Assembly (NCBI GenBank): GCA_964512915.1
Contig: CAZEKJ010000004.1
Coordinates: 41,347 to 105,346, forward strand
Reading direction: 5' to 3'
DNA from: an uncultured Porphyromonadaceae bacterium
GTDB lineage: Bacteria > Bacteroidota > Bacteroidia > Bacteroidales > UBA12481
Length of the DNA stretch: 64,000 bases
Shown here: positions 1,184 to 63,451 of the stretch, one piece after another
Layout: each line of letters opens with the position of its first letter
Numbering within the stretch: position 1 is the stretch's first letter
Notes under the pieces: model-generated
Told to the model about the DNA's origin: nothing
Databases searched by the model: none
Seen by the model: the letters and a program-made list of their open reading frames with translations, nothing else
Position numbers and translations under genes: made by a program

Positions 1184-1214
1184 TGCCCTTGTGCCCTTGT
1201 GCCCTTGTGCCCTA
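1184..1214. repeat. 8-mer tandem array (GCCCTTGT) x3.5
   Basis: tgcccttgtgcccttgtgcccttgtgccct runs into the stop codon (1212-1214) of the oxidoreductase gene. Confidence 0.9.
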
Positions 1215-2627
1215 TAGCCCCAGGCTATCCGTCCCCCACGGCTTCCTCTGTTCCCTCCTCAGCAGCGCATTTGCCGCGTCGCTGTTGGTAAACCTTTCGT
1301 GTACCGGATCCCACTGCAGTTTCTTCGGAATCTTCATGGCGATATGACTCAGCAGGCAGGCCGAGCAGGAGCGGTGGGCGACCTCAACCGGCGCGATGGG
1401 CTGCTGGCGGGTTCGCATGGAGTCGATCCAGTTGCCGTAATGATTTGTGCTTTTAACCAGATGCATTTCATCGGGTCCGATCACGCTGGTTAGTAACTTC
1501 GGATCGCGGGCATCCAGTGACTTTTTGTTGGCATCGAAAGTTACCGGGTCGCTTTTTGTAGCCTGATAATTGCCCCTTGTAACAAAGATCCAGCCCTCGC
1601 TCCCTTCGAACTTCACCCCGTTCGGGCGGTCGCCGCTGACGAACATGGTTACTCCGTTAGCGTATTTGGCCTTAACCTCAAAGTCACCGTGCACATTCCA
1701 CAGTCCGCTTTTGGGGAAACTTGCTTTTGCCTCGATCTCAACGGGGCCCGTATATTCGGTTCCCATTCCCCAGTGGGCTATATCCAGATGGTGAGCACCC
1801 CAGCCGGTGATCATCCCGGCGCCGAACTGCTCGCAGCGGAGCCAGCCGGGACGGCTGTAGTCGGCCTGCGGGTGCACACGTTTTTCGGTATAAAACACTT
1901 TCTCGGTCGACCCCAGCCACATATCATAATTCAGGTTTTTCGGCACAGGCATCTCCGGTTCAACCTCACCGCCCGGATCGCCCGGCAAGCCGATCTGGAT
2001 GGTGTGCAGCTTTCCGATCCGCCCGTTACGAACCAGTTCACAGGCATATCGGAACTGTTCCGATGAACGCTGCTGGCTGCCGATCTGGAAAATAACCCCG
2101 GACCGGTGAACCGCATCGCTCAACTGCCGGCCTTCGGCAATGGTTAAGGAGGTTGGTTTTTGCAGATAGATATCCTTTCCGGCAAGGGCCGCCTCAATGG
2201 CCGGCTGGGAATGCCAGTGATCGGGAGTACTGATGATCACGGCATCAATATCAGCCTTCATGATCATCTCCCGATAATCCTCGAATAGCTTTACGTCCAC
2301 CTCTTTACGTCCATATTTCTTCATATAGAACGCCTCTATGAACTGCTTTCCCTCGCCCACCCGTTTGGAGTCGAGGTCACAGGCCGCCACAAAGCGGACG
2401 GCATCAAACGGCAGGGCGCCTGGCATATCGGCCTCTCGGGCGATCCTGCCGCAGCCGATCTGGCCGATCCGGATCAGGTTGCTCGGGGCACTTTTACCAA
2501 AAACAGTTGATGGAACGATGGTCGGAATGATAATGGTTCCCGCGGCGGCCAGGCCACTAAGGCGCAAAAACTTCCGGCGATCAAGGCGTTGATGTTTCAT
2601 ATAGTAAGGGTTATAGTATGAACGCAT
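1212..2627 (-). CDS. Gfo/Idh/MocA family oxidoreductase with Tat signal
   Basis: 471-aa ORF. Twin-arginine motif DRRKFLRLSGLAAAG. Rossmann motif GQIGCGRIA and the typical Gfo/Idh/MocA C-terminal half. The start may instead be the ATG at 2600 (MKHQRLDRRKF). Confidence 0.85.
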   Translation of the reverse strand: MRSYYNPYYMKHQRLDRRKFLRLSGLAAAGTIIIPTIVPSTVFGKSAPSNLIRIGQIGCGRIAREADMPGALPFDAVRFVAACDLDSKRVGEGKQFIEAFYMKKYGRKEVDVKLFEDYREMIMKADIDAVIISTPDHWHSQPAIEAALAGKDIYLQKPTSLTIAEGRQLSDAVHRSGVIFQIGSQQRSSEQFRYACELVRNGRIGKLHTIQIGLPGDPGGEVEPEMPVPKNLNYDMWLGSTEKVFYTEKRVHPQADYSRPGWLRCEQFGAGMITGWGAHHLDIAHWGMGTEYTGPVEIEAKASFPKSGLWNVHGDFEVKAKYANGVTMFVSGDRPNGVKFEGSEGWIFVTRGNYQATKSDPVTFDANKKSLDARDPKLLTSVIGPDEMHLVKSTNHYGNWIDSMRTRQQPIAPVEVAHRSCSACLLSHIAMKIPKKLQWDPVHERFTNSDAANALLRREQRKPWGTDSLGL

Positions 2628-2670
2628 TTATGCGTTCCCACGAAGATACAAACTAAACCGAATCCACTAT

Positions 2671-2743
2671 GTCATCCCGACGAAAGTCGGGATCCCCAGC
2701 CTCGGAGCAAATGTCAGGAGATCCCGATTTCCATCGGGATGAC
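2671..2743. repeat. Twin tetraloop hairpins (GAAA-loop family), inverted pair
   Basis: H1 gtc-atcccgac-gaaa-gtcgggat (2671-2693). H2 atcccgat-ttcc-atcgggat-gac (2721-2743). Outer gtcat/atgac ends are complementary. The same architecture occurs at 35129-35184 and 62428-62499. Confidence 0.9.
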
Positions 2744-2755
2744 AACCCTCAGGCC

Positions 2756-2785: not shown

Positions 2786-3478
2786 TCACTCCTGCCGCCA
2801 CTTCCGCCTCACATGTTTCACGGTCTGGGTGCCGGTAAAGACGGTGTACCCGAAGGTGCCTCCGCCGGCCCGGATCACCTCACGCACGAAGCGGGTGCAA
2901 TACATATGGGTAGGTGCGCCGTAAAAAAGGAATTGCTGATCCTCAACCTCGGTGGCCTTCGCTACCATCCGCTTTAGATCAAGATTGTATACAATGGCGG
3001 TATGGATGGCCCCGTAAGATCTGAAAAACTTCTTGGCTCCCAGGTGTACCAGGACAGTATCCAGGTTGGAGATCCATCCGTTTTCAAGCCGCGCCTTAAT
3101 TTTCAGTTTCAATTCCGGCACGTGCCGGGCCGACCGCACCGTTCCGTAAAACTCCGGCCGCGGGCCCATCTGGTCGCGGCGATCGTCATACCGGCCAAAG
3201 TCATAATAACTAAGGTCACCGGTGGTGCCGTCTACCAGGATCACACCGGTATGGCCAACATTCGCATAATTATCTTTGTTGAAGTCAAACACATGTGCCC
3301 AAAAATTCCAGAAACTCCGGTATTGCGGGATCAGGATAGGCTTTTCGGGAAAATTCACCACAATGGCCATATCGCGGTTATCACGGCGGCCGGGAGGTTC
3401 CCGTAACGGATTCTCAGCCGGCAGCAAGCCAGGCAGGCATAAAAAAACAAGCAGTATGGAAAGCCGCAAAAGTTTCAT
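2786..3478 (-). CDS. Secreted hypothetical protein
   Basis: ORF 2786-3493; I prefer the ATG at 3478 (MKLLRLSILLVFLCLPGLLPAENP signal peptide). No family recognised with confidence. Confidence 0.5.
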   Translation of the reverse strand: MKLLRLSILLVFLCLPGLLPAENPLREPPGRRDNRDMAIVVNFPEKPILIPQYRSFWNFWAHVFDFNKDNYANVGHTGVILVDGTTGDLSYYDFGRYDDRRDQMGPRPEFYGTVRSARHVPELKLKIKARLENGWISNLDTVLVHLGAKKFFRSYGAIHTAIVYNLDLKRMVAKATEVEDQQFLFYGAPTHMYCTRFVREVIRAGGGTFGYTVFTGTQTVKHVRRKWRQE

Positions 3479-3504
3479 AAAAATCTGCGGCAAATATAAT
3501 AAGG

Positions 3505-9586: not shown

Positions 9587-11983
9587 ATGACCCGCTTATT
9601 CTGTATAAAAACCATGACCCGGATTTTCCTGTCGATTGCCCTCATAATAGCAGGACTTAGCACCTACGCCCAGTCCCCCTTCCGTGGCACCATTTCCGAA
9701 CCTTCCGCCCTGCTCGGCGGGATGCCGGCCGTGGCGCACTGGATCTGGCAGCCGGGCGAGGAGAATCCGAAGAACACCTACCTGCTGGTCCGGAAGTCGA
9801 TTGACTTTAAAAACAGGCCCGATAGTGTATTCGCCTATATATCTGCCTATTCCGTGGCTGATGTGTATGTCAACGGGGAGATGGTCGACCGCTGTCCGAT
9901 GAATTGCGACCCGGAATATCAGGTTTACGAGAAATTCAATTTAAGCCGCTATTTCCACGCCGGAACGAATACAATCACGGCCGTGGTGTACAATTTCGGA
10001 ATCGGGATGCACCACCGGATCAATGCCCGGGGCGGGTTCTTTTTCCAGGGCGAGGCTTTCCTGCCGGATAAAAAGACCAGCGGCATCAACACCGACGGCA
10101 GCTGGCGGGTTTCCGCCCTTAGCGGCTGGGCCACGGATACCGAATTGCGCACCGGGTCAGCAGAGGGTGCACCGAACCTCATCGGGTTTATTGAGCATTT
10201 CGATGCCCGCAAGATGCCACAAAACTGGCATTCGGCAATTTTCGATGACAGCGGATGGCAGGCGGCCAGCGTCATCGGTATTCCGCCCGTGGGTCCGTGG
10301 AAAAGTATCGTAACCGTAACCCGGCCGGTTCTCTTTCGCGAAACCATCTATCCGGTGAACCAGTGGACCGTGAACGGCTGGGTGATATATGACTTTGGCC
10401 GGGAGGTGACGGGAACGCCGGTGATCCGCCTGAAGGCCGGCAAGGAGGGCGCCGATATCACGCTGGGAACTGCCGAGCGCCTGCTGCCCGACGGCACCCC
10501 CGACTTTCAGCGGCGGGTTCGGTATGAGGACCATTACATCACCCGCAGCGGGGAGCAGCAGTGGAGCCCCTTCACCTGGCGCGGCTTCAGGTATCTCACG
10601 ATGCCGGTTAATTCCGATATTACCCTCATCGAACTCTCCGCCGTTGACCGCCATTTCAACCTGAGGGACGAAGGCGAGTTTGAATGCTCCGACCCCCTCC
10701 TCACCCGGATCTGGGAAACCGGCCGCTTCACGCTGAAATTATGCAGTCAGGATACCTACATGGACACCCCGTGGCGCGAGCAAACCCAGTACATCGCCGG
10801 GGATTCGCGCTACCTGCTGAAATATGCGTTCTATGCTTCCGGCCTCAGTTCGGAATTTTTAACCCGATATAATATCCTGTCGGGGGCCTGGTCGCAGCGC
10901 TGGGCCACCGACGGCTCCATCCGGTCGCGTTACCCCACCGACTGGCTCATCGGAGAGGGCACATCGGGATATCTGATTGATTATGAACTTGAATGGGTGA
11001 TTATGCTGGGCGAATACCTGGATTATTTCGGGAATTCCGATCTGATCCGACAGGTGTATCCCAACCTGGTTAAGCTGATGGCCCATTTCGAGACCCTCAT
11101 CGGGAAAGAACACGGGGTGCTTTCCGATATACCCGGCTGGATCGTGCTGGACCATCCGGATACCTACCCCATGGACCAGACGAAGGAGATAACGGGGTTG
11201 AATTGCCTGTACTACGCAGCGCTCAATACCGCGTCAAGACTGGCTGCGGAGGTCATGGCAGATCCGGTGCAGGGTGAAAAGTGGAAAAGTGAAAGAGTGA
11301 TACTCGGGGCCAATATCCGGAAATGGATGTGGTCGCCGGAGAAGAAAGTGTATGCCGACAGTTATGGCAGCAGCCAGTTCAGCCAGCAGACCCAGGTGTA
11401 TGCAATACTGTACGGGCTTGTCAATCAGGAAGATATTCCAGATGTAACCCGATATATCACGGAGCAGGGGCGAAAAAGCGAGATGTCGTTTGCCTATTAC
11501 GTGGTGGGGTCGGTTTTCGACCGCGAGCCGCAATGGGCGCTGGATTATATCCGCAAGAACTGGGGGGATCAGATGAAGCTCGCGTCGTTCAATGGCGGAT
11601 GGCAGGAGGGGTGGAATGTGGAAGAGTGGACGGGTGATATCGGTTCCACGTCGCATGCGTGGTGCTCGGGACCCACTGCACTGCTCCCGCAAAAGGTATT
11701 GGGGGTTGAGCCCATCAAGCCCGGCTGGAAAGAGTTCCGGGTTGCTCCGCATCCCGGCGACCTCACCTGGGCGCGGGGCGTGGTGCCCACACCTGCGGGC
11801 AGTATCATGATCAACTGGTCGCGGGACAATACTAAAATGAGTCTGTCGGTCGAGGTTCCCCGCGGCACCCGGGCATTGATCGATCTTCCCGCAGCGGCGA
11901 TCACCGTCGATGGCAAGTCCGTTAAGGGACCCGTTTGGGTGGCGGCGGGGGAGCATCAGGTGGAATGGATTTTGTTCCCGTAG
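9587..11983 (+). CDS. GH78-like (alpha-L-rhamnosidase-related) six-hairpin glycosidase
   Basis: 798-aa ORF. The signal peptide is best read from the second Met (9614, MTRIFLSIALIIAGLSTYAQ). Size and DTPWREQTQYIGD-type motif resemble the rhamnosidase catalytic-domain family. Its stop TAG is part of a conserved hairpin element. Confidence 0.6.
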   Translation: MTRLFCIKTMTRIFLSIALIIAGLSTYAQSPFRGTISEPSALLGGMPAVAHWIWQPGEENPKNTYLLVRKSIDFKNRPDSVFAYISAYSVADVYVNGEMVDRCPMNCDPEYQVYEKFNLSRYFHAGTNTITAVVYNFGIGMHHRINARGGFFFQGEAFLPDKKTSGINTDGSWRVSALSGWATDTELRTGSAEGAPNLIGFIEHFDARKMPQNWHSAIFDDSGWQAASVIGIPPVGPWKSIVTVTRPVLFRETIYPVNQWTVNGWVIYDFGREVTGTPVIRLKAGKEGADITLGTAERLLPDGTPDFQRRVRYEDHYITRSGEQQWSPFTWRGFRYLTMPVNSDITLIELSAVDRHFNLRDEGEFECSDPLLTRIWETGRFTLKLCSQDTYMDTPWREQTQYIAGDSRYLLKYAFYASGLSSEFLTRYNILSGAWSQRWATDGSIRSRYPTDWLIGEGTSGYLIDYELEWVIMLGEYLDYFGNSDLIRQVYPNLVKLMAHFETLIGKEHGVLSDIPGWIVLDHPDTYPMDQTKEITGLNCLYYAALNTASRLAAEVMADPVQGEKWKSERVILGANIRKWMWSPEKKVYADSYGSSQFSQQTQVYAILYGLVNQEDIPDVTRYITEQGRKSEMSFAYYVVGSVFDREPQWALDYIRKNWGDQMKLASFNGGWQEGWNVEEWTGDIGSTSHAWCSGPTALLPQKVLGVEPIKPGWKEFRVAPHPGDLTWARGVVPTPAGSIMINWSRDNTKMSLSVEVPRGTRALIDLPAAAITVDGKSVKGPVWVAAGEHQVEWILFP

Positions 11984-12006
11984 GGGCGTCCTGCGGACGC
12001 CCGTTT
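11984..12006 (+). terminator. Conserved GC hairpin (GTAGGGGCG-NN-C TGC G-NN-CGCCC RTTT family)
   Basis: gggcgtcc-tgc-ggacgccc-gttt immediately after the GH78-like stop. The TAG stop is part of the conserved gttcccgtagggg flank. Confidence 0.5.
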
Positions 12007-12020
12007 ACCCCCATTTCATG

Positions 12021-12070
12021 AATCGTGACGCGTGATGCGTGATGCGTGAAGCGAAAAAAAATCGTGACAG
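12021..12070. repeat. CGTGANS heptamer array plus A-tract
   Basis: cgtgacg cgtgatg cgtgatg cgtgaag cg aaaaaaaa tcgtgacagg. Confidence 0.9.
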
Positions 12071-24687: not shown

Positions 24688-24712
24688 CGCATACATGCGT
24701 CCGTTCCCGTAG

Positions 24713-24736
24713 GGGCGAGCTGCGCTCGCCCGTTTT
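24713..24736 (+). terminator. Conserved GC hairpin plus T-run after DoxX
   Basis: gttcccgtag-gggcgagc-tgc-gctcgccc-gtttt. Same flanks as 11984 with a covarying stem interior. Confidence 0.55.
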
Positions 24737-27807: not shown

Positions 27808-27925
27808 TGGGTTTCGGGTATCAGGTATCGGGTTTGGGGTTTGGGGTTTGAGGTTTGGGGTTTGAGGTTTGAGGTTTGGGGTTTATTTGAGATTTGTTTT
27901 TTGAGGTTTGAGATTTGAAAATACA
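27808..27925. repeat. G/T-rich GGTTTGR/GGGGTTT array between coxIII and coxIV
   Basis: gggtttggggtttggggtttgaggtttggggtttgaggtttgaggtttggggttt... Four GGGG runs lie within 27830-27884 on the coding (+) strand. Confidence 0.9.
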
Positions 27926-30007: not shown

Positions 30008-30021
30008 CTTACTGCCTGTAA

Positions 30022-30068
30022 GGGCGACCTGCGGTCGCCCATTTAAACCGGGCGACCGCAGGTCGCCC
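30022..30068. terminator. Two copies of the GGGCGACC-TGC-GGTCGCCC hairpin in opposite orientation between convergent genes
   Basis: 30022-30040 (+ sense, after ctaB, followed by attta). 30050-30068 (minus sense, after the SIS gene, followed by ggttt on the minus strand). Confidence 0.45.
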
Positions 30069-31093: not shown

Positions 31094-31109
31094 AGTGTAG
31101 AATTTAAAT

Positions 31110-31266
31110 GGCCTCCCTGCGGTCGGCTAACAGGCCCTTCGGGCTAAAAGGGGCTTCGCCCTAACAGGCATTTGGCAATTTCTCTATTAGCGCGAAGCGC
31201 CTGTTAGGAGCGCAGCGACCTCTTAGGAGCGAAGCGACCTATTAGCGAGCGCAGCGAGCCTATTAT
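31110..31266. repeat. Modular linker-plus-mini-hairpin element, copy 1
   Basis: Left half: cctccctgcggtcggc-taacagg-cccttcgggc-taaaagg-ggcttcgccc-taacagg. Right half: tattag-cgcgaagcgc-ctgttagg-agcgcagcga-cctcttagg-agcgaagcga-cctattag-cgagcgcagcgag-cctatta. Confidence 0.9.
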
Positions 31267-33234: not shown

Positions 33235-33404
33235 CTAAAAGGCTCGGCTTTAGCCTCGCTAAAAGGTCGCTGCGCTCCTAAAAGGGGCTGAAGCCCTAAC
33301 TCGCACGACGGTTGCCTCTCTATTAGCGCGAAGCGCCTGTTAGCGACCGCAGGGAGCCTTTTAGCGAGGCGTTAGCCGAGCCTCTTAGGAGTGAAGCGAC
33401 CTGT
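33235..33404. repeat. Modular linker-plus-mini-hairpin element, copy 2
   Basis: ctaaaagg-ctcggctttagcctcgc-taaaagg-tcgctgcgctc-ctaaaagg-ggctgaagccc-taac ... tattag-cgcgaagcgc-ctgttag-cgaccgcagggag-ccttttag-cgaggcgttagccgag-cctcttagg-agtgaagcga-cctgtt. Confidence 0.9.
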
Positions 33405-34085
33405 TCATTCTTTTCGTTCAAACACCAACTCCCCAAAATACTCCGGCCGGTGATAATCGGGCTTCTCTGTGCCCACCGGATTCCAGGTCAGATAGTGGGG
33501 CTGCGTGAGTTTATCCCCGCATTTATAAAAGTTTGCCTTGAAAGTTTTTCCCCCGAGGCTCCCGATCTCTTTGCCGGCAAAGGCTTCAACCGGGATGGCA
33601 ATGGTCAGTTCCCAGGATTGTTCTCCTCTCTTTTCGCTGAAGGGTTTGGTTCCCATGGTTCCCATCCTGCGTATCTTGCTGATATAGGACGGATCAACCT
33701 TTTTGCTGTCGGCCCGGCCCGTCCCCTTGCCCAGGAGACAGGTTCCTATCGGGTTAAACTCAAAATTGTAATAGATCCCGTCGGAGTCGGGGGATACAAA
33801 GAATTCTACGCATGAATCTTCGCAAACACTTTCGTTGGAACTATCTTTTTCGGCCAGTACGAAGTTCTCCGTAACATAATACTTCAGGTAAATTTCAGAA
33901 TCTCCGTATCCGATATTGAATCGCACGGCCGGTTTATTGACATATCCATCCCAATTAACCGTACTGATTTCATGGCCTTTACCGAGGGCATCGAGGGCTT
34001 TTGAAACCTCATTCAGATCCGGCTGAGGAGCAGAAAACCCCAGCCAGGGAACCATAATAGTCTTCATTAGTAATTCTAGTAGCAT
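33405..34085 (-). CDS. Carbohydrate-binding family 9-like (DOMON-like) protein
   Basis: 226 aa. VEFFVSPDSDGIYYNFEFNPIGT and the FYKCGDKL...YLTWNP pattern resemble CBM9-like domains. Weak call. Confidence 0.45.
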   Translation of the reverse strand: MLLELLMKTIMVPWLGFSAPQPDLNEVSKALDALGKGHEISTVNWDGYVNKPAVRFNIGYGDSEIYLKYYVTENFVLAEKDSSNESVCEDSCVEFFVSPDSDGIYYNFEFNPIGTCLLGKGTGRADSKKVDPSYISKIRRMGTMGTKPFSEKRGEQSWELTIAIPVEAFAGKEIGSLGGKTFKANFYKCGDKLTQPHYLTWNPVGTEKPDYHRPEYFGELVFERKE

Positions 34086-34090
34086 TTTTT

Positions 34091-34154
34091 CGTGATACGT
34101 AAAGCGTAACGCGTGAATAACAATCTCTTAACTCTCTTAACTTCCTTAACTCCC
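34091..34154. repeat. Degenerate CGTGA-type array followed by a 9-mer array (TCTCTTAAC x3)
   Basis: cgtgatacgtaaagcgtaacgcgtgaataac, then tctcttaac tctcttaac ttccttaac tccc. The 9-mer array covers the ROK stop (34146-34148). Confidence 0.85.
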
Positions 34155-35099
34155 GACCTCCTTCCAGGCAAGCCCGGATGCCCCTAAAATCGCGGCATCG
34201 GCCTCTTTGAGGCTCGATGGAATGATTTTCAGGGATTTTCGGTAATAGCCCATGATATTTTCATCCACGAACCGGCTGAGCGGGTCGAGCAGCAGGTCGC
34301 CCGACTGAGCCAGTCCGCCGAAGAGGAAGATCGCTTCCGGGCTGCAGAAGGCAGCCGCATTATTGATCGCGGTAGCGAGCATTTCGGCGGTCTGTTCAAA
34401 GGCGGCCAGTGCTATCTGGTCTCCGTTGTTTGCCGCTTCCGCAATGGCTTTTGAGGTCAATTCATCTGCGGGAATTTTCCGGAGCGGACTTGGATCGCGG
34501 CGTTCGGCGAACAGTTCCAGCACCGTTTTTACAATACCCGTGGCTGAGACATAGGCTTCCAGGCATCCCTGCCGTCCGCAGCCGCATTCCCTTCCGAAAG
34601 GTTCCATTGTGAGGTGTCCCATCTCCCCGGCAAATCCGGTATGGCCGTATACCAGCTCGCCGTTAATGACGATCCCGCTGCCCAGCCCGGTTCCGAGGGT
34701 GAGAATGATGAAATTCTTCATCCCCTTGGCGCCACCGTAGATCATTTCCCCCAAGGCGGCAGCATTGGCATCGTTGGTGAGAACAACCGGCACCGGGTAA
34801 TATTTTCCGAACAGTTTCGCCAGCGGGACAATTCCTTTCCAGTTGAGGTTAGGCGCATGCTCGATGGTCCCCTTGTAATAGTTGCCGTTGGGTGCCCCGA
34901 TGCCGATGGCCTTAAGCTCCACGTCACCGGAATCTCTCAGTAAACTCTGGATTTCCCGGTGCACGGCTTCCACGAAATCTTCGGCTTTCTTATACGTTGC
35001 CGTCAATACCTTTCCCTGTGCCAGTATCCGGGCGTCGCGGTCAACCACCCCGATCTTGGTGTTCGTTCCCCCGATGTCGATTCCGATTGTAACTTCCAT
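34146..35099 (-). CDS. ROK family sugar kinase (second copy)
   Basis: 317 aa. GIDIGGTNTKIG and the ROK zinc motif CGCGRQGCLEAYVS. Paralog of 19460-20434. Confidence 0.8.
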   Translation of the reverse strand: MEVTIGIDIGGTNTKIGVVDRDARILAQGKVLTATYKKAEDFVEAVHREIQSLLRDSGDVELKAIGIGAPNGNYYKGTIEHAPNLNWKGIVPLAKLFGKYYPVPVVLTNDANAAALGEMIYGGAKGMKNFIILTLGTGLGSGIVINGELVYGHTGFAGEMGHLTMEPFGRECGCGRQGCLEAYVSATGIVKTVLELFAERRDPSPLRKIPADELTSKAIAEAANNGDQIALAAFEQTAEMLATAINNAAAFCSPEAIFLFGGLAQSGDLLLDPLSRFVDENIMGYYRKSLKIIPSSLKEADAAILGASGLAWKEVGS

Positions 35100-35128
35100 T
35101 ATTGTAGTGTGTTAGTCTAATCCTGTCT

Positions 35129-35184
35129 GTCATCCTGGCGAAAGCCAGGATCTCCCAGGGGATCCCGACTTTCGTCGGGATGAC
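35129..35184. repeat. Twin tetraloop hairpins (GAAA-loop family)
   Basis: gtc-atcctggc-gaaa-gccaggat (35129-35151) and atcccgac-tttc-gtcgggat-gac (35162-35184). Confidence 0.9.
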
Positions 35185-35189
35185 AACCC

Positions 35190-36623
35190 CTAACCGGCTC
35201 CCAGCACCTCCGGCCTCTCCCTGTGCACCTTCATCACCATTTCCCCGAACAGGGTGTTCGCCCAGGCGAACCATTTCCGCGTAAAGTTAGCAGGATCATC
35301 CTTATGGAAAGATTCGTGCATAAATCCGGTTCCGGCATGTGTGGCCTTCAGGCTTGCCAGGCAGAAGCGGATCTCTTCGTCATCCTGCGAGGTAAGCGCC
35401 CGCATGGTGAGGCCCAGCGGCCAGATCATGTCCATTCCGGTATGCGGACCGCCGATTCCCTGAGCAGCTGTTCCTTTGAAATAATAGGGGTTCGAATCAC
35501 TGAGGACAAACTTCCGGGTGTTCCGGTACATGTCATCACCGAGGCTCAGACCCGTCAGGTATGGAATGGACAGCAAGCTTGGCACATTTGCGTCATCCAT
35601 ATAGAGCCGGTTGCCGAATCCGTCAGCCTCAAACGCAAAAATGCGCCCGAATTTCTCATGCTCGCGAAGCCCGTATGAATAAACCGCTGCCTCAACCTCA
35701 TCAGCAAACGCCCGGCACTCGCTGGCCAGGGAATGGTTATTCTTTACCCCGATTTGTATCTCTGCCAATTGCCTCAGACTGGCAACGGCAAAAAGGTTTG
35801 ACGGGATCAGGAAAGGATAGATCGTGGCATCATCAGATGGCCGGAATATGGAGCAAATCATTCCTACCGGCTTTATCGGGTTTCCCCATCCTCCGCCGGC
35901 AACGGTATCGGTTTGCCAACCGGTTACCCGCTGGAATTTATAGGGCCCTCTGTTATTTTTCCGCTGCTGCTCCCTGAAAGTCTTGATCACGAGGCCCATG
36001 GCCCGGTCCCAGTCGGCATCAAAGACCGAAGTGTCTCCCGTTGCTTTCCAGTAACCGTGAGCCAGCCGGATTGGGTAACAGAGCGAATCCACCTCCCATT
36101 TTCTTTCGTGAAGCTCGGGTTTCATATCGGTCAGGTCATCCTTCCAGGGACTGCCGGTGGGGCCGTCGTTGAATGCGTTTGCATAGGGATCGATAAGGAT
36201 GCACTGAACCTGACGGTTGATAACCCCCGCCAAAAGTTTTTTCAGTTTCGGGTCCTTTGCAGCCAGCGGCAGATAGGGCCATACCTGGGCTGTTGAATCC
36301 CGCAGCCACATGGCATGGATATCCCCGGTAATCACAAAGGTATCAGGCTTGCCATTCTTTTCAGAATACGTTACGGTAGTATCCAGGGTATTCGGGAAAC
36401 AGTTCCCGAAAAGCCAGGACAGCTCAGGATCCCTGATGGCAGACTGGATCTCGCGAATCGTCTCCTCCACCGCTTCCGATGTGAAATTCCGGTCCTTTAA
36501 CGGCGGCCTTTTCGACTCATACCCAAACTCTTCCATCGCCCTCCCCATCACGCCGGTCCCCCCGGCCAACAAGGCACCCCCTGCAAAGCCCGCTGCTTTA
36601 AGAAATTTCCTCCTGTCAGTCAT
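35190..36623 (-). CDS. GH125 exo-alpha-1,6-mannosidase with Tat signal
   Basis: ORF 35190-36755. The first 44 codons are a read-through of heptamer arrays. The ATG at 36623 gives MTDRRKFLKAAGFAGGALLAG. GH125 hallmark FVITGDIHAMWLRDS. Confidence 0.85.
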   Translation of the reverse strand: MTDRRKFLKAAGFAGGALLAGGTGVMGRAMEEFGYESKRPPLKDRNFTSEAVEETIREIQSAIRDPELSWLFGNCFPNTLDTTVTYSEKNGKPDTFVITGDIHAMWLRDSTAQVWPYLPLAAKDPKLKKLLAGVINRQVQCILIDPYANAFNDGPTGSPWKDDLTDMKPELHERKWEVDSLCYPIRLAHGYWKATGDTSVFDADWDRAMGLVIKTFREQQRKNNRGPYKFQRVTGWQTDTVAGGGWGNPIKPVGMICSIFRPSDDATIYPFLIPSNLFAVASLRQLAEIQIGVKNNHSLASECRAFADEVEAAVYSYGLREHEKFGRIFAFEADGFGNRLYMDDANVPSLLSIPYLTGLSLGDDMYRNTRKFVLSDSNPYYFKGTAAQGIGGPHTGMDMIWPLGLTMRALTSQDDEEIRFCLASLKATHAGTGFMHESFHKDDPANFTRKWFAWANTLFGEMVMKVHRERPEVLGAG

Positions 36624-36658
36624 TCGGCATGTATTAATAATTTTGTACCTTTTTATAT

Positions 36659-36705
36659 CGTGAACCGTGAAGCGTGAAGCGTGAAGCGTGAACCGTGAAC
36701 CGAGA
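36659..36705. repeat. CGTGANS heptamer array x6
   Basis: cgtgaac cgtgaag cgtgaag cgtgaag cgtgaac cgtgaac cgaga. Confidence 0.95.
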
Positions 36706-36708
36706 ATC

Positions 36709-36757
36709 AGCAACTGGTAACCGGTAACTGGTAACCGGTAACTGGTAACCGGCACCC
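36709..36757. repeat. RGYAACY heptamer array x7
   Basis: agcaact ggtaacc ggtaact ggtaacc ggtaact ggtaacc ggcaccc, ending at the flippase stop. Confidence 0.95.
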
Positions 36758-41079: not shown

Positions 41080-41260
41080 CAGGTCGCTGCGCTCGCTAAA
41101 AGGCCTCCCTGCGGTCGGCTAATAGGCCCTTCGGGCTAATAGGGGCTTCGCCCTAACAGGCAATTGTGTTCATGCTCTATTAGCCCGAAGGGCCTATTAG
41201 CCGACCGCAGGGAGGCCTCTTAGCGAGGCGCCAGCCGATCCTCTTAGGAGCGCAGCGACC
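41077..41260. repeat. Modular linker-plus-mini-hairpin element, copy 3 (best long hairpin)
   Basis: taacagg-tcgctgcgctc-gctaaaagg-cctccctgcggtcggc-taatagg-cccttcgggc-taatagg-ggcttcgccc-taacagg ... tattag-cccgaagggc-ctattag-ccgaccgcagggagg-cctcttag-cgaggcgccagccgatc-ctcttagg-agcgcagcga. Three module pairs are exactly complementary. The first TAA is the GT4 stop. Confidence 0.9.
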
Positions 41261-43640: not shown

Positions 43641-43826
43641 AAACAGGTCGCTGCGCTCCTAAAAGGCCTCCCTGCGGTCGGCTAAAAGGCTCCCTTCGGT
43701 CGCTAACAGGCGCTTCGCGCTAATAACGCTTTATAGCTATTGATTGTTAGGGCGAAACCCCTTTTAGCCGACCGCAGGGAGGCCTTTTAGGAGCGCAGCG
43801 ACCTGTTACCGAGCGAAGCGAGGACA
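43638..43826. repeat. Modular linker-plus-mini-hairpin element, copy 4
   Basis: aaacagg-tcgctgcgctc-ctaaaagg-cctccctgcggtcggc-taaaagg-ctcccttcggtcgc-taacagg-cgcttcgcgc ... ttag-ggcgaaacccc-ttttag-ccgaccgcagggagg-ccttttagg-agcgcagcga-cctgtta-ccgagcgaagcgagg. Fills the whole convergent spacer. Confidence 0.9.
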
Positions 43827-44921: not shown

Positions 44922-45080
44922 GTTACTGGTTAAGATCGGTTGCCGGTTGCCGGTTGCCAGTTGCCGGTTGGGCCAGAACTAGTTTCCAATAATAATGAAT
45001 AACCTGAAATTTCGGTCCTGGCTCAAAAAACTGGTAACCGGCAACCGGCAACCGGTAACTGCTAATAACCAACCAGTAAC
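44922..45080. repeat. 159-bp hairpin element with GGTTGCC / GGCAACC heptamer arms in the corA-typA divergent spacer
   Basis: Outer gttactggtt (44922-44931) pairs with aaccagtaac (45071-45080). ggttgccggttgccggttgccagttgccggttgggccag faces ctggc...ctggtaaccggcaaccggcaaccggtaac. About 40-nt AT-rich loop. Confidence 0.9.
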
Positions 45081-53606: not shown

Positions 53607-53738
53607 CGACGCAAGCGTGCGCCCGCGTAACGCACCTGTAGGGGCGAACCCGCGGTTCACCCGGGATGGTTCGTGGGGAGTGACCAGTGACCAGTGACCA
53701 GTGACCAGTGACCAGTTCGTGATGCGTGACGCGTGAAG
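53602..53738. repeat. Composite spacer: CGTGA-like tract, GC hairpin, (GTGACCA)x5, CGTGAYG x3
   Basis: 53602-53635 cgtgacgacgcaagcgtgcgcccgcgtaacgcac. 53636-53666 ctgtaggggcgaacccgcggttcacccggg. 53680-53714 five perfect gtgacca. 53718-53738 cgtgatg cgtgacg cgtgaag. Confidence 0.95.
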
Positions 53739-53764
53739 GGAGCACGTTACGGGAAGTGTGAATT

Positions 53765-54790
53765 TTAATCAGGATCCCTTAGCCATCGGTCAATACTTCG
53801 GGCAACCATCTCTGGATTGGGTAAGAGTGTTTTATAATATTCCGGCAGCTCCGGGGTTGTGCTGTAAGTAGCAACCCCAATGGGAAGCATCGAGCTTTTC
53901 AAGGAATATTCAACGACCAGCCGCTTTTTGTTTTTACAAATTATGATCCCGATTGAGTCATTTTCATTTGGGAGTTTAACCTGATCATTCAGCACAGCCA
54001 AATAAAACTCCATTTTCCCTTTGTATTCCGGTTTAAAAGCACCGGTCTTCAGTTCAATGGCGACCAAACTTTGAAGCCTTCTGTGGTATAAAAGTAGGTC
54101 GATATAATATTCTTCATCCTCTACCCCCAAACGATATTGATTACCGATAAAGCTAAAGTCATCGCCGAGCTCAATCAAAAACCCACGAATGTTTTTCAGC
54201 AGCGCAAGTTCAAGTTCATGTTCGCTGTGATTATCAGACAATTCCAGGAAATCAAAAGTATAATGATCTTTAACAGCCAGTTTTCTTTGGGCCTGATATT
54301 TCTCTGGAACCGTCTGGTCAAAATTGGTTTGATTGAGCGTATATTTTTCATAAGTCCGGTTATCAATCTGATGGTCAAGGACCCTTGATGTCCAACCAAA
54401 CCTTTTTGCCGCAAGGAGATAAAACAGACGTTCGGATCTAGTCTTGCATTTTGAAAAAATTATGACGTTATGAGAAAAGCTAATTTCTCCAGTCAATGAC
54501 TGGAGAATTGTATCACCTTGATATTCCGTGTAATACTGGACCATGTTCCATAAATTAGTTGTGGAATACCCCCGCTGTCCGGGAAACTCCTTTTGAAGGT
54601 CGGCAGCCAGGGTTTCAACGACTGACTTACCCCAACCCTCCACTTTTTGCTTCTCCGCGATCATCTTACCCCGATCCCAGTAGAGGGCAACCAGTTCTTT
54701 ATTAACCGATCTCAAAGCCTCATACTGTGCTGACCGGATGCGGTCTTTAACTTCAACAAAGAAATCGCGATACTCTTTCGGTGATTCCAT
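53765..54790 (-). CDS. YhcG-like PDDEXK nuclease (DUF1016 family)
   Basis: 341 aa. N-terminal IRSAQYEALRSVNKELVALYWDRGKMI and the C-terminal D...ELK core (DLLLYHRRLQSLVAIELK). Visibly AT-richer than its flanks. Confidence 0.75.
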   Translation of the reverse strand: MESPKEYRDFFVEVKDRIRSAQYEALRSVNKELVALYWDRGKMIAEKQKVEGWGKSVVETLAADLQKEFPGQRGYSTTNLWNMVQYYTEYQGDTILQSLTGEISFSHNVIIFSKCKTRSERLFYLLAAKRFGWTSRVLDHQIDNRTYEKYTLNQTNFDQTVPEKYQAQRKLAVKDHYTFDFLELSDNHSEHELELALLKNIRGFLIELGDDFSFIGNQYRLGVEDEEYYIDLLLYHRRLQSLVAIELKTGAFKPEYKGKMEFYLAVLNDQVKLPNENDSIGIIICKNKKRLVVEYSLKSSMLPIGVATYSTTPELPEYYKTLLPNPEMVARSIDRWLRDPD

Positions 54791-54883: not shown

Positions 54884-54969
54884 CGTGAGGCGTGACGCGT
54901 GATGCGAAAAACCGGTAACTGGTAACCGGCAACCAGCAACCAGCAACCAGCAACTAGTAACCAGCAACC
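54884..54969. repeat. CGTGANS x3 followed by RGYAACY x8
   Basis: cgtgagg cgtgacg cgtgatg cg aaaaacc, then ggtaact ggtaacc ggcaacc agcaacc agcaacc agcaact agtaacc agcaacc. The last units encode AGY-stop of GH29 (54954). Confidence 0.95.
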
Positions 54970-59568: not shown

Positions 59569-60696
59569 ATGACCCGCCACGAACGACTTCTTCGATCCCT
59601 CCGCGGCCTCCCGGTCGATCGCCCACCCGTCTGTTTCTACGAAATAAACGGCTACGACGAGCATCCGGAAGATCCTGATCCGTTCAATATTTTCTCCCAT
59701 CCCTCCTGGAAACCTCTAATCTACCTGGCCCGGGAGAAAACCGACCGGATCATCATGCGGGGCGTGGCTTTCAAGGAGATCGCCCCCGACCCGATCGGCC
59801 ACATTGCCGCCGATCAAACCACCCTAAAAAACGGCTCCCGGTACATCCGGCGAACCGTTCATGCGGGCAGGCGCATCCTGACCATGGAGACCCGTCAGGA
59901 TCCGGATATCAACACCATCTGGACCACCGAGCCGCTGCTCAAGGATCTGGATGATCTGGATGCGTTCCTTGAACTCCCCGTTTTCGGTGCCGGTGAAACC
60001 GTGAATGCCATTGAATTCCTTAAAGTTGAAGCCGATATCGGAGATACAGGTTTGGTCATGATCGACACGCCCGATCCGCTTTGCCTGGCTGCACTCCTCT
60101 TCGACATGAGCAATTACACCATGGTTGCCCTCACCGAACCCGAGCGCTTTCATAAATTACTGCAACGGTTCTCCGAGGTTCTCCTTGCCAAAACGGAGGA
60201 AGTTGCAAAACTCCTCCCCGGCCGCCTCTGGCGCATTTACGGTCCGGAGTTCGCCTCCCCGCCCTACCTGCCGCCTTATCTGTTCCGTGAATATGTATCC
60301 CGATATGTTGGCCCGATGATCGACCTGATCCACCAATCGGGCGGGTTTGCCCGGGTTCACTGTCATGGCAACATCCGCGACATCCTCGATGATATTGCAG
60401 CCATGGGTGCCGATGCCATTGACCCGATCGAGCCCCCGCCCCAGGGCGATGTAACGCTAAAATATGTAAGGGAACGCTACGGCGACCGCCTTGTCCTCTT
60501 CGGCAACCTCGAATGTGCCGATCTCGAAAACCTCCCGACTTCCGAATTTGAAAAGAAAATCCGCCAGGCCCTCGACGAAGGCACCGCCGGCTCCGGCCGC
60601 GGCTTCGTACTTATGCCCTCTGCTTCGCCATATGGGAGGGTGCTGGGGGAGCGTGCAATGAGGAACTATGAGGCGATGATCCGGGTAATACAATAA
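59569..60696 (+). CDS. Uroporphyrinogen decarboxylase (URO-D) family protein, MtaA/CmuA-like
   Basis: 375 aa. N-terminal MTRHERLLRSLRGLPVDRPPV and a C-terminal HCHGN...DPIEP pattern typical of the URO-D superfamily. Flanked by two inverted copies of one repeat element. Confidence 0.65.
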   Translation: MTRHERLLRSLRGLPVDRPPVCFYEINGYDEHPEDPDPFNIFSHPSWKPLIYLAREKTDRIIMRGVAFKEIAPDPIGHIAADQTTLKNGSRYIRRTVHAGRRILTMETRQDPDINTIWTTEPLLKDLDDLDAFLELPVFGAGETVNAIEFLKVEADIGDTGLVMIDTPDPLCLAALLFDMSNYTMVALTEPERFHKLLQRFSEVLLAKTEEVAKLLPGRLWRIYGPEFASPPYLPPYLFREYVSRYVGPMIDLIHQSGGFARVHCHGNIRDILDDIAAMGADAIDPIEPPPQGDVTLKYVRERYGDRLVLFGNLECADLENLPTSEFEKKIRQALDEGTAGSGRGFVLMPSASPYGRVLGERAMRNYEAMIRVIQ

Positions 60697-60886: not shown

Positions 60887-62386
60887 ATGAAACTGCCCGT
60901 CTCCGTCAATAACCGGCTTTCCATCACCGGCGCCATCGTGGCCAGCATCAGTCTGATGTTCATCATCTTCTTTTTTATCATCAGCCTGTTCTATACCGAA
61001 GGCGGTAACTACCTGGGCCTATTCACCTACATTATCCTTCCGGTATTCCTGATTCTCGGCCTGATCCTGATACCCATCGGGATGGTTGGGAAAATGAAGC
61101 GGATGAAACGAGGTATTGAAGAGGTAAAAGGTAAGCCCTGGATCATAGATTTTACCGATAAACGGCACCGGAATGCCACATTTGTTTTTGCCATGGGTAC
61201 GGTAGTTCTTCTCTTTCTATCGGGGATTGGAAGCTATGAGGCCTTTCATTACAGCGAATCCGTTCAGTTCTGCGGTACAACCTGCCACAAGGTTATGGAG
61301 CCGGAACACACTGCCTATCAGGGATCTGAACACGCCAACGTTGCCTGCGTAGAATGCCATGTTGGCGCCGGCGCCGACTGGTATATCAGATCGAAACTTT
61401 CCGGACTCCGACAGGTTTGGGCGGTTATCACCAATAGTTACCCTCGCCCGATACCTACCCCGATAGTGGATCTGCGGCCTGCGCGGGAAACCTGTGAACA
61501 CTGCCACTGGCCGGCGAAGTTCTATGCGCACAAACTGGTATCAGAGAAACACTATCTGGCCGATTCTGCCAATACCGAGTGGAATATAGACCTTCGGATG
61601 AAAATCGCCGCCTCACACAGCGCCCTGGGAAATACCGGCGGAATCCACTGGCATATCAATCCTGATATTAAAATCGAATACATTGATGCCCTGGGCGACC
61701 GTGAGATGCTTCCGTGGGTCCGTAGTATTAACCTGATCACCGGCGATACCACGATATACATGGATTCCGAGAACCCGGCCAGCGACTCAATCATGCATGC
61801 TGTTGAACCCCGTACCATGGACTGCATGGATTGCCACACACGCCCGTCGCACAAATACCGGACTCCACAAACATTTGTAGATGAAGCGATTGCAGCAGGC
61901 GAGATATCCGTTACCCTGCCGGAAATTAAAAAAATCAGCATGGAAGTCCTGCGCACAGAGTACTTCAACCGCCAGGGCGCCCAGGACACCATCCGCCAAA
62001 CCATCGATGCATTCTACAAGGATACCTATCCCGATATTTATGCCAACCGCAAATCCGACGTGGATCAGGCTATTGCAGGAGTTTTAGCTGGATATGCCAA
62101 AAACATATTCCCCGAAATGAAAGCCAGCTGGGATGCGTACCCTGATCACATCGGACATATTGAATACGGCGGCTGTTTCCGGTGCCACAACGATAAACAT
62201 CAGAGTAAATCGGGTAAAGTAATCTCACGAGACTGCAACCTCTGCCACAACATCATGACTCAGGGGACTCCGCAAAACCTGGAAGTGGCTCCGTTTAATG
62301 GTCAACTGGAATTCAAACACCCCGTTGACATTGAGGATGCATGGAAGGAGATGGCTTGTACGGAGTGCCACAGAAAGCTGTACTAG
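60887..62386 (+). CDS. Membrane-anchored multiheme cytochrome c (NapC/NirT-like N-terminus, seven heme sites)
   Basis: 499 aa with N-terminal TM segments. Six CxxCH sites (CVECH, CEHCH, CMDCH, CFRCH, CNLCH, CTECH) plus one CGTTCH (CX3CH) at the position of the NapC-type FCxxCH. Confidence 0.75.
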   Translation: MKLPVSVNNRLSITGAIVASISLMFIIFFFIISLFYTEGGNYLGLFTYIILPVFLILGLILIPIGMVGKMKRMKRGIEEVKGKPWIIDFTDKRHRNATFVFAMGTVVLLFLSGIGSYEAFHYSESVQFCGTTCHKVMEPEHTAYQGSEHANVACVECHVGAGADWYIRSKLSGLRQVWAVITNSYPRPIPTPIVDLRPARETCEHCHWPAKFYAHKLVSEKHYLADSANTEWNIDLRMKIAASHSALGNTGGIHWHINPDIKIEYIDALGDREMLPWVRSINLITGDTTIYMDSENPASDSIMHAVEPRTMDCMDCHTRPSHKYRTPQTFVDEAIAAGEISVTLPEIKKISMEVLRTEYFNRQGAQDTIRQTIDAFYKDTYPDIYANRKSDVDQAIAGVLAGYAKNIFPEMKASWDAYPDHIGHIEYGGCFRCHNDKHQSKSGKVISRDCNLCHNIMTQGTPQNLEVAPFNGQLEFKHPVDIEDAWKEMACTECHRKLY

Positions 62387-62427
62387 TTGCCAGTTGCCGG
62401 TTACCGGTTACCGGTTGGGCCAGAGCG
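62384..62427. repeat. GGTTRCC heptamer array ending in ccggttgggccaga
   Basis: tagttgccagttgccggttaccggttaccggttgggccagagc. Same terminal motif as 44957-44978. Its first tag is the cytochrome stop codon. Confidence 0.9.
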
Positions 62428-62499
62428 GTCATCCTGACGGAAGTCAGGATCCCCTTGCGGTGCATTGAGGGTTGGGATTCCTGCTTTCGCCGGAATGAC
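62428..62499. repeat. Twin tetraloop hairpins (GGAA / TTTC loops)
   Basis: gtc-atcctgac-ggaa-gtcaggat (62428-62450) and attcctgc-tttc-gccggaat-gac (62477-62499, one mismatch). Confidence 0.85.
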
Positions 62500-62512
62500 A
62501 TTAGTTGCTCCG

Positions 62513-62544
62513 ACTGGTCACTGGTTACTGGTCACTGGTCACTC
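62513..62544. repeat. ACTGGTC heptamer array (reverse of GTGACCA family)
   Basis: actggtc actggtt actggtc actggtc actc. Runs into the stop of the GRE activase gene. Confidence 0.9.
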
Positions 62545-63451
62545 ATCCTCCAACGCTCACCGGCAACCCATACTCTGTAAATACTCTAATAGCCATCTCT
62601 ATTTCCCCCCTCGTGGGTTCTGCCAGTCCGGCCTGGTCGTATTGCTGTCCCAGCTTGTTGTGCTTATTTATGGCGATATTATGGTAAGCCAGGAGGTTGA
62701 CCTGTTTTGGAGGACCATCCAGTGCGGCAATGAATGATGCGGTTTGCCTGAGGTTCTCAGGGTCACTGTTCACTCCGCTGATCAATGGAATCCTGATGTT
62801 GATCTCTGCCCCCGATTCAGCCAGTATCTGAAGATTTGAAAGGATTTTTTCATTGCCCACCCCAGTGAACCTCTTGTGCTTTTCGGAATCCATGTGCTTC
62901 AGGTCGTAAAGGAATAGGTCGGTCCGCTTTGCGACCTCCAGAAGAGTTTCTGTTTTTGCAAAGCCCGATGTATCCACCGCCCTGTGAATCCCCTCGCTGC
63001 CGCAGGCATCCAGCAGTTCAATCAGAAAATCAGGCTGTTGCAGCGGTTCACCACCCGATATGGTGATCCCGCCTGCAGACTGGTCCATCATCACGGTTTC
63101 GCGCCTCACCACCTTCATCACTTCCTCCACGGTAGCCGGATAACCCGACATTTCCATGGCCTTCGTTGGACATACATCGGCACAAATCCCACAAAGATCG
63201 CAGGCATCCACATCGGTAAAAATTCCATCCGGAGTGAGCTTCAGGGCATGCTGCGGACAATTCTCCACGCAGGTGCTGCAGCCGATACATTTCGCCTTCG
63301 AATACATTTTCTGCACATGCGGGGAAATGCTCTCCGGATTATGGCACCACAGGCAATTCAACGGGCAGCCCTTGAGGAAAACCGTAATCCTTATACCCGG
63401 ACCATCGTTGATCGAATAGGGTTTAATATCGAAGAGCAGTGCCTGAGCCAT
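62543..63451 (-). CDS. Glycyl-radical enzyme activating protein (radical SAM)
   Basis: 302 aa. GPGIRITVFLKGCPLNCLWCHNPE and two ferredoxin-type clusters (CIGCSTCVENCP, CDLCGICADVCP). Confidence 0.85.
   Translation of the reverse strand: MAQALLFDIKPYSINDGPGIRITVFLKGCPLNCLWCHNPESISPHVQKMYSKAKCIGCSTCVENCPQHALKLTPDGIFTDVDACDLCGICADVCPTKAMEMSGYPATVEEVMKVVRRETVMMDQSAGGITISGGEPLQQPDFLIELLDACGSEGIHRAVDTSGFAKTETLLEVAKRTDLFLYDLKHMDSEKHKRFTGVGNEKILSNLQILAESGAEINIRIPLISGVNSDPENLRQTASFIAALDGPPKQVNLLAYHNIAINKHNKLGQQYDQAGLAEPTRGEIEMAIRVFTEYGLPVSVGG

Follow-up and report, generated by a model that had tools for sequence, protein, structure and literature searches.

Intergenic hairpin pairs in an uncultured Bacteroidota lineage are probable members of the CGTC-tagged REP family

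The window, the whole 64,000-nucleotide stretch of DNA analysed here, contains three pairs of short inverted hairpins, and each pair is in all likelihood a head-head (HH) dimer, tags outward, of REPs of the CGTC-1 class, a multicopy intergenic repeat maintained as self-complementary hairpin units. Judged by comparison with published repeats, the three loci are very probably ordinary copies of a described family and not a new structured RNA. A preliminary description had taken the paired but differing stems of these loci as the mark of a functional RNA; this interpretation is supported in part, in that the structure-preserving variation is real and a dedicated RNA function is unsupported.

The six units and their genomic setting

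Exactly six 24-nt units of the form YGTC-AT(6 bp)-GRAA-(6 bp)AT-C are present in the window; they make up three inverted pairs (2671-2743, 35129-35184 and 62428-62499), each with GTCAT...ATGAC on the outside. The preliminary description, which had reported two opposed 8-bp stem hairpins inside such ends at each of the three loci, was accurate in coordinates and sequences. A search with GTCATCCNNNCGRAAGNNNGGATC, allowing up to three mismatches, returned six window sites (2671+, 2720-, 35129+, 35161-, 62428+ and 62476-), whereas shuffled versions of the window gave a mean of 0.12 matches and reached six in 0 of 100 shuffles. An unfiltered covariance-model search for the unit, with a model built from a set that included the window's own six copies, recovered the same six sites at 35-40 bits, with the next best candidate at 11.7 bits, and showed isolated dimers only. 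The units, with their limits and model scores, are as follows.

2670-2697, plus strand: REP unit 1L, tag TGTC, stem ATCCCGAC/GTCGGGAT, loop GAAA, tail CCC (40.5 bits)
2717-2744, minus strand: REP unit 1R, tag TGTC, stem ATCCCGAT/ATCGGGAT, loop GGAA, tail CTC (35.3 bits)
35128-35155, plus strand: REP unit 2L, tag TGTC, stem ATCCTGGC/GCCAGGAT, loop GAAA, tail CTC (40.4 bits)
35158-35185, minus strand: REP unit 2R, tag TGTC, stem ATCCCGAC/GTCGGGAT, loop GAAA, tail CCC (40.5 bits)
62427-62454, plus strand: REP unit 3L, tag GGTC, stem ATCCTGAC/GTCAGGAT, loop GGAA, tail CCC (36.1 bits)
62473-62500, minus strand: REP unit 3R, tag TGTC, stem ATTCCGGC/GCAGGAAT with one G.A mismatch, loop GAAA, tail CCA (37.0 bits)

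All six stems are 8 bp long and start with an A-T pair followed by a T-A pair, and all six enclose a loop of 4 nt, which on the tag strand reads GAAA in four units and GGAA in two and is closed by a C-G or U-A pair in every case. The tag is TGTC in five of the six and GGTC in one, and the tail begins with C throughout (CCC in three units, CTC in two and CCA in one). Five of the stems are perfectly paired despite differing in sequence (ATCCCGAC, which occurs twice, ATCCCGAT, ATCCTGGC and ATCCTGAC). The statement that the stems differ and yet remain paired therefore stands for these five, but the sixth, ATTCCGGC/GCAGGAAT at 62476 on the minus strand, has a single internal G.A mismatch that the preliminary description left unmentioned. 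Its observation that GAAA or GGAA loops face TTTC or TTCC loops, such that either strand displays one GNRA-type loop, was borne out, the dimer being strand-symmetric. All three loci are HH dimers with their tags outward and with spacers of 25, 8 and 24 nt, and all three are heterodimers, the stem of one unit differing from that of its partner. Their positions relative to the neighbouring genes are given below.

2671-2743, no strand assigned: HH heterodimer 1, spacer 25 nt, between the stop of a TseH-like gene (2786-3493, minus strand) and the start of a GFO/IDH/MocA oxidoreductase gene (1212-2627, minus strand)
35129-35184, no strand assigned: HH heterodimer 2, spacer 8 nt, 5 nt past the stop of a GH125 gene (35190-36755, minus strand) and 29 nt ahead of the start of a ROK glucokinase gene (34146-35099, minus strand)
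62428-62499, no strand assigned: HH heterodimer 3, spacer 24 nt, between a NapC/NirT-type cytochrome gene (60887-62386, plus strand) and a convergent 302-aa ORF (62543-63451, minus strand), the latter called PFL-activating-enzyme-like by eye only

All three dimers are thus intergenic, two between unidirectional genes and one between convergent genes, with upstream stop codons 5-43 nt away. Local breaks in gene order are seen at all three. A TAACCAG heptamer array (2756-2784) adjoins dimer 1, and direct RCYGGTY heptamer arrays lie on either side of dimer 3 (62386-62417 and 62513-62543).

Two small ORFs read across the repeats and into real genes that lie on the other strand or in another frame, in agreement with the earlier suggestion that repeat-derived reading frames of this kind are spurious.

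62313-62501, minus strand: spurious ORF of 62 aa (MSFRRKQES...), with its start in the flank plus tag (ATGTCAT), reading across dimer 3 and the heptamer array
35041-35274, minus strand: spurious ORF of 77 aa (...VIPTKVGI...), containing VVIPTKVGIPWEILAFARMT, reading across dimer 2 and overlapping the 3' end of the GH125 gene and the 5' end of the ROK gene

The former extends over the 3' end of the cytochrome gene, which lies on the opposite strand. The commonest member of the family, GTCATCCCCGCGAAAGCGGGGATC, gives VIPAKAGI in translation and IPAFAGMT from the other strand, and strings of the VIPAKAGI and IPAFAGMT type are familiar from spurious hypothetical proteins. A literature search on peptide and DNA strings, VIPAKAGI among them, returned nothing relevant.

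Pairing within units and folding of the dimers

The reference genomes, one per species, were scanned with the pattern GTCATCCNNNNGRAANNNNGGATC, which gave at least 120 loci. All four free stem pairs are complementary in 104 of the 133 pattern matches listed, where chance would give 1 in 256. We also assembled an unbiased partner set, in which the partner was defined solely by an inverted ATGAC within 150 nt downstream; from 110 candidates a perfect 8-bp stem was present in 46 and a stem with one mismatch in 7, against a clustering of random candidates at 5-7 mismatches. For the single-hairpin structure, in 68 distinct 24-mers, 94.7% of cells pair compared with 81.0% in column shuffles (0 of 500 shuffles reach the observed value), six of the eight stem pairs change on both sides, and the covariation score is 0.437 compared with 0.186 for shuffles and at most 0.126 for slid controls. 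The compensatory differences noted between the three loci are therefore borne out by covariation across the wider family, and the pattern is real, strong at the level of the family, and favours the local hairpin.

Among the matches listed, the HH arrangement (tags outside) was found in 53 dimers, the TT arrangement (tags inside) in 5 and the tandem HT arrangement in 7. Heterodimers make up 36 of the 53 HH dimers, and both local stems are perfect in 27 of these 36. A separate scan of viral contigs gave 131 pattern matches on 107 stretches, 75 of them with perfect stems. The multi-copy viral contigs L201 and L217 carry REP dimers between the genes of clusters that, from translations read by eye, look like those of GTA-type elements or prophages.

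The inverted arrangement of its two units also allows a dimer to fold end to end as a single long hairpin, and this is usually the minimum free energy fold predicted by ViennaRNA, in which the arms pair with each other, as do the GAAA and UUUC "loops". The long hairpin is the preferred prediction for RNA on both strands and for single-stranded DNA at loci 1 and 2, and the twin-hairpin RNA conformation is predicted to be less stable by 7-20 kcal/mol. In the three window heterodimers each unit is self-complementary but has a stem unlike that of its partner, so that the long helix contains mismatches or wobbles. What evolution maintains is the local hairpins rather than the long hairpin between the arms; it is the self-complementarity of each unit that is kept, and neither its sequence nor the pairing between the two units.

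The GNRA loops had been put forward as a pointer to an RNA-level role, and this did not hold up. Non-GNRA loops (GAAC, GAAG, GCAG and others) are found in 15 of 53 members (28%) of the unbiased partner set, the remainder comprising 38 GNRA-type loops of which 32 are GAAA, and in the predicted equilibrium fold of a dimer its two loops pair with each other. Furthermore, the strand bias of mismatches, which would discriminate between RNA and DNA, was not significant (G:T 20 versus A:C 11, p = 0.15). Since the dimer is strand-symmetric, any transcript of it carries one GAAA and one UUUC loop. The C-GAAA-G element is also very stable as a DNA mini-hairpin, and this property, together with the presence of GAAA on opposite strands of the two halves, means that the loop is not specific to RNA.

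Distribution among relatives and class assignment

The nearest named relative of the window is "Bacteroidetes bacterium GWF2_49_14" (98% amino acid identity in the ROK protein), whose contigs L122-L124 are collinear with window positions 24260-44980 at 88-93% nucleotide identity. The sister contig L122 has nine units in 21 kb at five loci, compared with six units in 64 kb of the window, and none of its five loci is conserved in the window, where the orthologous positions are occupied by heptamer arrays or unrelated sequence. The one positional coincidence between the two, upstream of the ROK gene, is between units with unlike stem variants, at a place where L122 lacks the GH125 gene. A comparison of the window with L122 gave no clean pair of filled and empty sites, the REP being replaced by heptamer arrays or unrelated sequence everywhere the two differ. 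No unit was found with the covariance model in 65 kb from four more distant relatives (L125, L128, L129 and L131), nor with a pattern search in a further ∼31 kb from three others (L133, L134 and L136). The REP-free relatives keep the same gene order (84-92% amino acid identity for the ROK protein and 85% for the cytochrome), and the gap between the GH125 and ROK genes measures 16 bp without a REP in L125 versus 90 bp in the window. A 1.8-kb contig encoding the exact ROK protein carries the same dimer. Solo units, trimers and same-orientation pairs also exist. The repeats are hence restricted to one sub-lineage of these Bacteroidota and turn over fast between close relatives.

These units match the description of CGTC-1 repeats in tag, stem, loop, HH dimers and position, and it is on this match that the assignment to the class is based. 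Di Nocera, De Gregorio and Rocco (2013, BMC Genomics 14:522; PMC3733652) divided REPs into two super-families by their unpaired terminal tag, GTAG or CGTC. In their CGTC-1 class the tag is CGTC or often TGTC, with CCTC an accepted variant, the stems are of 8 bp and almost always have complementary AT at positions 1-2, the loops are of 4 nt, the 3-nt tails are mostly CCA, and the repeats are predominantly HH dimers with spacers of 20-100 bp (PMC3733652). Most are found close to 3' ends, between ORFs that are unidirectional or convergent; the repeats reach a high copy number in the genome and "apparently lack a dedicated transposase" (PMC3733652). The window units share the CGTC/TGTC tag, the 8-bp stem starting with AT, the 4-nt loop, the C-initial tail and the HH dimers with variable spacers, and likewise the division into sub-families with alternative complementary stem residues, the location near ORF 3' ends, the lack of a linked transposase and a host among the Bacteroidetes. 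They differ in tails of CCC or CTC in five of six cases against the CCA consensus, which makes the fit a loose one on this point, in the single GGTC tag, and in being heterodimers at all three loci, although homodimers predominate in the published class and some species have heterodimers only (PMC3733652). The host differs too, being an uncultured Bacteroidota lineage near "Bacteroidetes bacterium GWF2_49_14".

Across phyla the frequencies of the C or T base before GTC and of the CCA tail agree with the CGTC-1 paper. Among 193 units the base before GTC is C in 117, T in 64, G in 9 and A in 3 (C or T in 181), and the tail is CCA in 102, CTC in 31 and CCC in 12. The CGTC repeats were reported in Proteobacteria, Chlorobi, Bacteroidetes, Spirochaetes and Thermotogae (PMC3733652). 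The proteobacterial taxa among the matches listed in our scan are Sphingomonas and many other Alphaproteobacteria, Coxiellaceae, Nitrosomonas, Vibrio, Sulfurovum and Deltaproteobacteria. The other taxa listed are Porphyromonadaceae (Bacteroidota) and, beyond the five phyla of the 2013 paper, records labelled Propionibacteriaceae (Actinobacteria), Nitrospirae, Omnitrophota, Hydrogenedentota, Bipolaricaulota and several CPR groups, although many of the matching records are metagenome-assembled genomes (MAGs), so that some of these labels may be binning errors.

The dRS3 repeats of Neisseria and the RPE-6 repeats of Rickettsia have been placed in CGTC-1 as well (PMC3733652). The 20-bp dRS3 repeats of the NIMEs have the consensus ATTCCC-N8-GGGAAT and are known as the sites at which Nf filamentous phages integrate with the aid of an IS110-type recombinase (Bentley et al. 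2007, PMC1797815). With dRS3 and NIMEs (Parkhill 2000; PMC1797815) the window units have in common a palindrome of 20 bp in which the outer inverted repeat is conserved and the central 8 nt vary, and the inverted pairs flanking variable spacers. The dRS3 consensus ATTCCCNNNNNNNNGGGAAT, however, is present in none of the six, five of which read ATCCYGNN...NNCRGGAT and the sixth ATTCCGGC...GCAGGAAT (ATTCCG...AGGAAT). Long arrays alternating with RS elements are absent from the window, the largest cluster of the sister lineage being a trimer, and nothing comparable with the phage-integration role was seen at the window units. Both consensus and array organisation therefore rule out strict dRS3/NIME membership, though dRS3 also belongs to the CGTC-1 class, and the window units are placed as CGTC-1 REPs but not as dRS3.

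The GTAG REPs and REPINs with their RAYT (Nunvar 2010; Bertels and Rainey 2011; cited in PMC3733652 and PMC6006769) resemble the window units in being short tagged palindromes in inverted doublets, intergenic and downstream of genes, without target site duplication (TSD) and with compensatory stem variants within a family. The tag here is YGTC and not GTAG (GTRG), however, and there is no RAYT in the window, nor is any known to flank CGTC units (PMC3733652). The halves of a doublet are moreover usually unlike here, so the long REPIN-type hairpin is not conserved. The BIMEs of E. coli share with the window dimers a mosaic of an inverted palindromic pair separated by a variable linker, but are of unrelated sequence and have longer, bulged stems. 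BIMEs, with their two inverted palindromic units and variable linker, are co-transcribed with upstream genes, have a proposed mRNA-stabilising role, and are bound by gyrase, IHF and Pol I.

Against this assignment we weighed the possibility that the loci encode a structured RNA with a function of its own, whether as a cis-regulatory element or as a small RNA, whose GNRA/UUUC tetraloop hairpins are selected at the RNA level. The strong covariation, the closure of the GAAA/GGAA loops by C-G or U-A in each of the six window units, the likely transcribed position downstream of ORFs at all three loci and the RNA roles proposed in the REP literature (PMC3733652) all speak for such an RNA, but we regard it as improbable. 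Orthologous sites are not conserved in relatives of 84-98% protein identity, and lineage-specific turnover on a short time scale is the opposite of what is expected of a locus-specific regulatory RNA; as the copies do not occupy orthologous sites, the covariation reflects a multicopy, high-turnover repeat. The stem differences thus lose their standing as the "classical signature" of a structured RNA, the copies being paralogous REPs that close relatives have elsewhere or lack. The motif also turns up beside unrelated genes and across many phyla, and the strand symmetry of the dimers, the predicted long helix that buries the loops, the non-GNRA loops and the unbiased mismatches tell against an RNA in the same way. 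Comparison with Rfam models gave no match to a family at the gathering score anywhere in the window. A permissive search at locus 1 returned sub-threshold look-alikes of eukaryotic miRNA precursors, at no more than 27 bits versus cut-offs of at least 57, and these reflect a generic long hairpin.

The inverted 24-nt ends, the variable internal spacer, the size of 56-73 bp and the multicopy, lineage-specific occurrence would suit a MITE, that is, a deletion derivative of a DDE-type insertion sequence with 24-27-nt terminal inverted repeats bound by a double-stranded DNA transposase. This origin is very improbable, since direct flanking repeats of at least 4 nt were found in 0 of 58 HH dimers at boundary offsets 0-2, each supposed terminal repeat is itself palindromic, the two ends of one element usually differ, and solo units, trimers and same-orientation pairs occur; nor does a transposase gene lie inside the HH pairs of sampled loci or in the window. 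That the loci are intrinsic and possibly bidirectional transcription terminators, sharing sequence by chance, is hardly credible despite GC-rich hairpins 5-43 nt past stop codons and the placing of one dimer between convergent genes. On neither strand of the three window dimers is any arm followed by a T/U run, terminator and promoter scans at the three loci gave nothing at the elements, and the units are not canonical terminators. Dimer 2 also lies only 29 nt upstream of the next gene start, within what looks like an operon, at a place where the gap in relatives measures 16 bp, and a terminator function would leave the conserved YGTC tag and the sequence identity across phyla unexplained.

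Propagation and possible effects of the repeats

For repeats of the CGTC-1 class, we suggest that a unit can persist or multiply only for as long as it is able to form a hairpin beside the tag. By analogy with GTAG REPs, in which the RAYT transposase recognises tag and hairpin in single-stranded DNA, an enzyme would probably do the same here. Element-level selection, or palindrome correction templated by the hairpin, would then give rise to compensatory stem variants that appear as sub-families, and self-correction of the palindrome by template switching would be an alternative source of the compensatory changes. The REP-type palindromes of this lineage are probably selfish or semi-domesticated.

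The presence/absence differences between relatives suggest that the repeats are mobile, although replacement by recombination fits as well as transposition because no clean empty site was found. Neither Y1_Tnp nor any other transposase was detected among the window ORFs or at syntenic loci. The intervals between distant HH partners at 120 sampled loci, searched for an autonomous parent element, held ordinary genes or no ORFs and no transposase, and the multi-copy viral contigs that we inspected (L201 and L217) gave no pointer to a mobilising recombinase. To our knowledge, no mobilising enzyme has been assigned to the CGTC REPs, "orphans" since 2013. It is conceivable, if rather unlikely, that active propagation of the repeats is under way in this lineage, driven by recombination or by a non-RAYT enzyme yet to be described. 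The same process might in turn lie behind the co-occurring inflation of intergenic DNA by heptamer arrays and other hairpin repeats, and behind the gene-order breaks at the three dimers.

The position of the units directly after coding regions makes their co-transcription probable, and enterobacterial REPs are known for an effect on the stability of upstream messages. By analogy, the RNA hairpins may as a secondary effect buffer the 3' end of the upstream mRNA or separate cistrons, and a side effect at the RNA level, for example protection of the 3' end, of the kind the literature proposes for REPs, is plausible here.

The known repeat family is extended by these loci to another uncultured Bacteroidota lineage, a result of modest scientific value in itself. 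They also add to the evidence that what is conserved is the single hairpin unit rather than the dimer hairpin, that turnover within the family is fast, and that its distribution is much broader than first reported. For annotation, the REP-derived spurious ORFs, recognisable by VIPTKVGI, SFRRKQES and IPAFAGMT-type peptides, should be masked. The repeats mark fast-evolving intergenic DNA, and the comparison of REP-rich with REP-free sister lineages could help to find the mobiliser of CGTC REPs; if propagation is active, sister genomes with and without REPs would provide a clean comparative screen for the mobilising process.

Gene order around the REP dimers

We compared the intergenic regions that carry the three REP dimers (inverted pairs of hairpin units with their tags outside) with those of the sister contig L122 and the more distant relatives L128 and L133-L137.

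2628-2785, region of dimer #1
35100-35189, region of dimer #2
62387-62542, region of dimer #3

Gene content or order differs from the relatives at all three dimers. At dimer #1, the ThuA gene that lies between TseH and GFO in L128 is absent from the window, and in the region of dimer #2 L122 has a REP trimer at a site without GH125. At dimer #3, redox genes on the same strand come after the cytochrome gene in L133-L137; in the window, the dimer and a convergent gene occupy this place. Because rearrangements are numerous, this coincidence may be due to chance; it also echoes NIMEs, for which a link with recombination has been proposed.

REP units were also found on two contigs classed as viral in IMG/VR (L201 and L217), which carry 5-12 CTGAC-type CGTC units, with dimers between genes whose translations, judged by eye, resemble GTA-type or phage tail and host-specificity proteins. 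These contigs probably represent GTA clusters on a chromosome rather than phages.

Heptamer arrays and their contact with REP dimers

Short tandem arrays with 7-8-nt units number ∼50 in the window and occupy most of its intergenic regions.

Examples: 2756-2784, 12024-12053, 27810-27918, 36659-36752, 44937-45059
Further examples: 53679-53716, 54910-54969, 62386-62417, 62513-62543

Their units include TAACCAG/AACCGGT, CGTGAWG, AGAAGGC, AGGGCAGG, GGTTTGA, ATTGGCAA, AGTGACC and GATTGAC, and they resemble the STRR heptamers of cyanobacteria, but the host here belongs to the Bacteroidota. Many arrays form inverted pairs around a short center (for example 49011-49069/49140-49198, 95% complementary), and a 150-nt inverted repeat (59385-59534/60692-60841, 91% complementary, consisting in part of AAGGCAG heptamers) wholly brackets a URO-D-like gene (59569..60696). 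Arrays at 53679-53747 and 54884-54969 also flank the one gene of the window that resembles a nuclease gene.

53765-54790, minus strand, YhcG/DUF1016 PDDEXK-nuclease gene

The GGTT[AG]GG... end of CCGGTTR-type arrays adjoins REP dimers of this lineage.

Window: 62386-62543, 2744-2784
L122: 86-153, 20844-20925

Dimer #3 has RCYGGTY arrays on either side, both in the same orientation, and is placed as if inserted into a single heptamer array. An identical array end (GGTTGGGCCAGA) is present without REP at 44939-44977.

Further repeat families and repeat load

A second hairpin-repeat family consists of 17-23-nt tandem units (GCTAAYAGG-SSSC-TTCG-GSSS...).

Window: 31104-31265, 33293-33406, 41092-41227, 43642-43807
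L122: 1263-1428, 5268-5490, 11741-11889, 13911-13986

Its short stems, closed by a TTCG loop, flip between GCCC/GGGC and GGGC/GCCC, changes that are likewise compensatory, and its units form near-perfect inverted arms of 48-51 nt (98-100% complementary). A third small repeat, D20, reads GTTCCCGTAGGGGCG-NN-CTGCG-NN-CGCCCGTTT, and its two variable stem positions co-vary among copies (TC/GA, AG/CT, AC/GT).

D20 copies: 11974-12006, 24703-24735, 30012-30044

L122 is repeat-rich, similar to the window. L125, a relative without REPs, has very short gaps between its genes and a single array in 21 kb. Several repeat classes seem to have expanded jointly within one sub-lineage.
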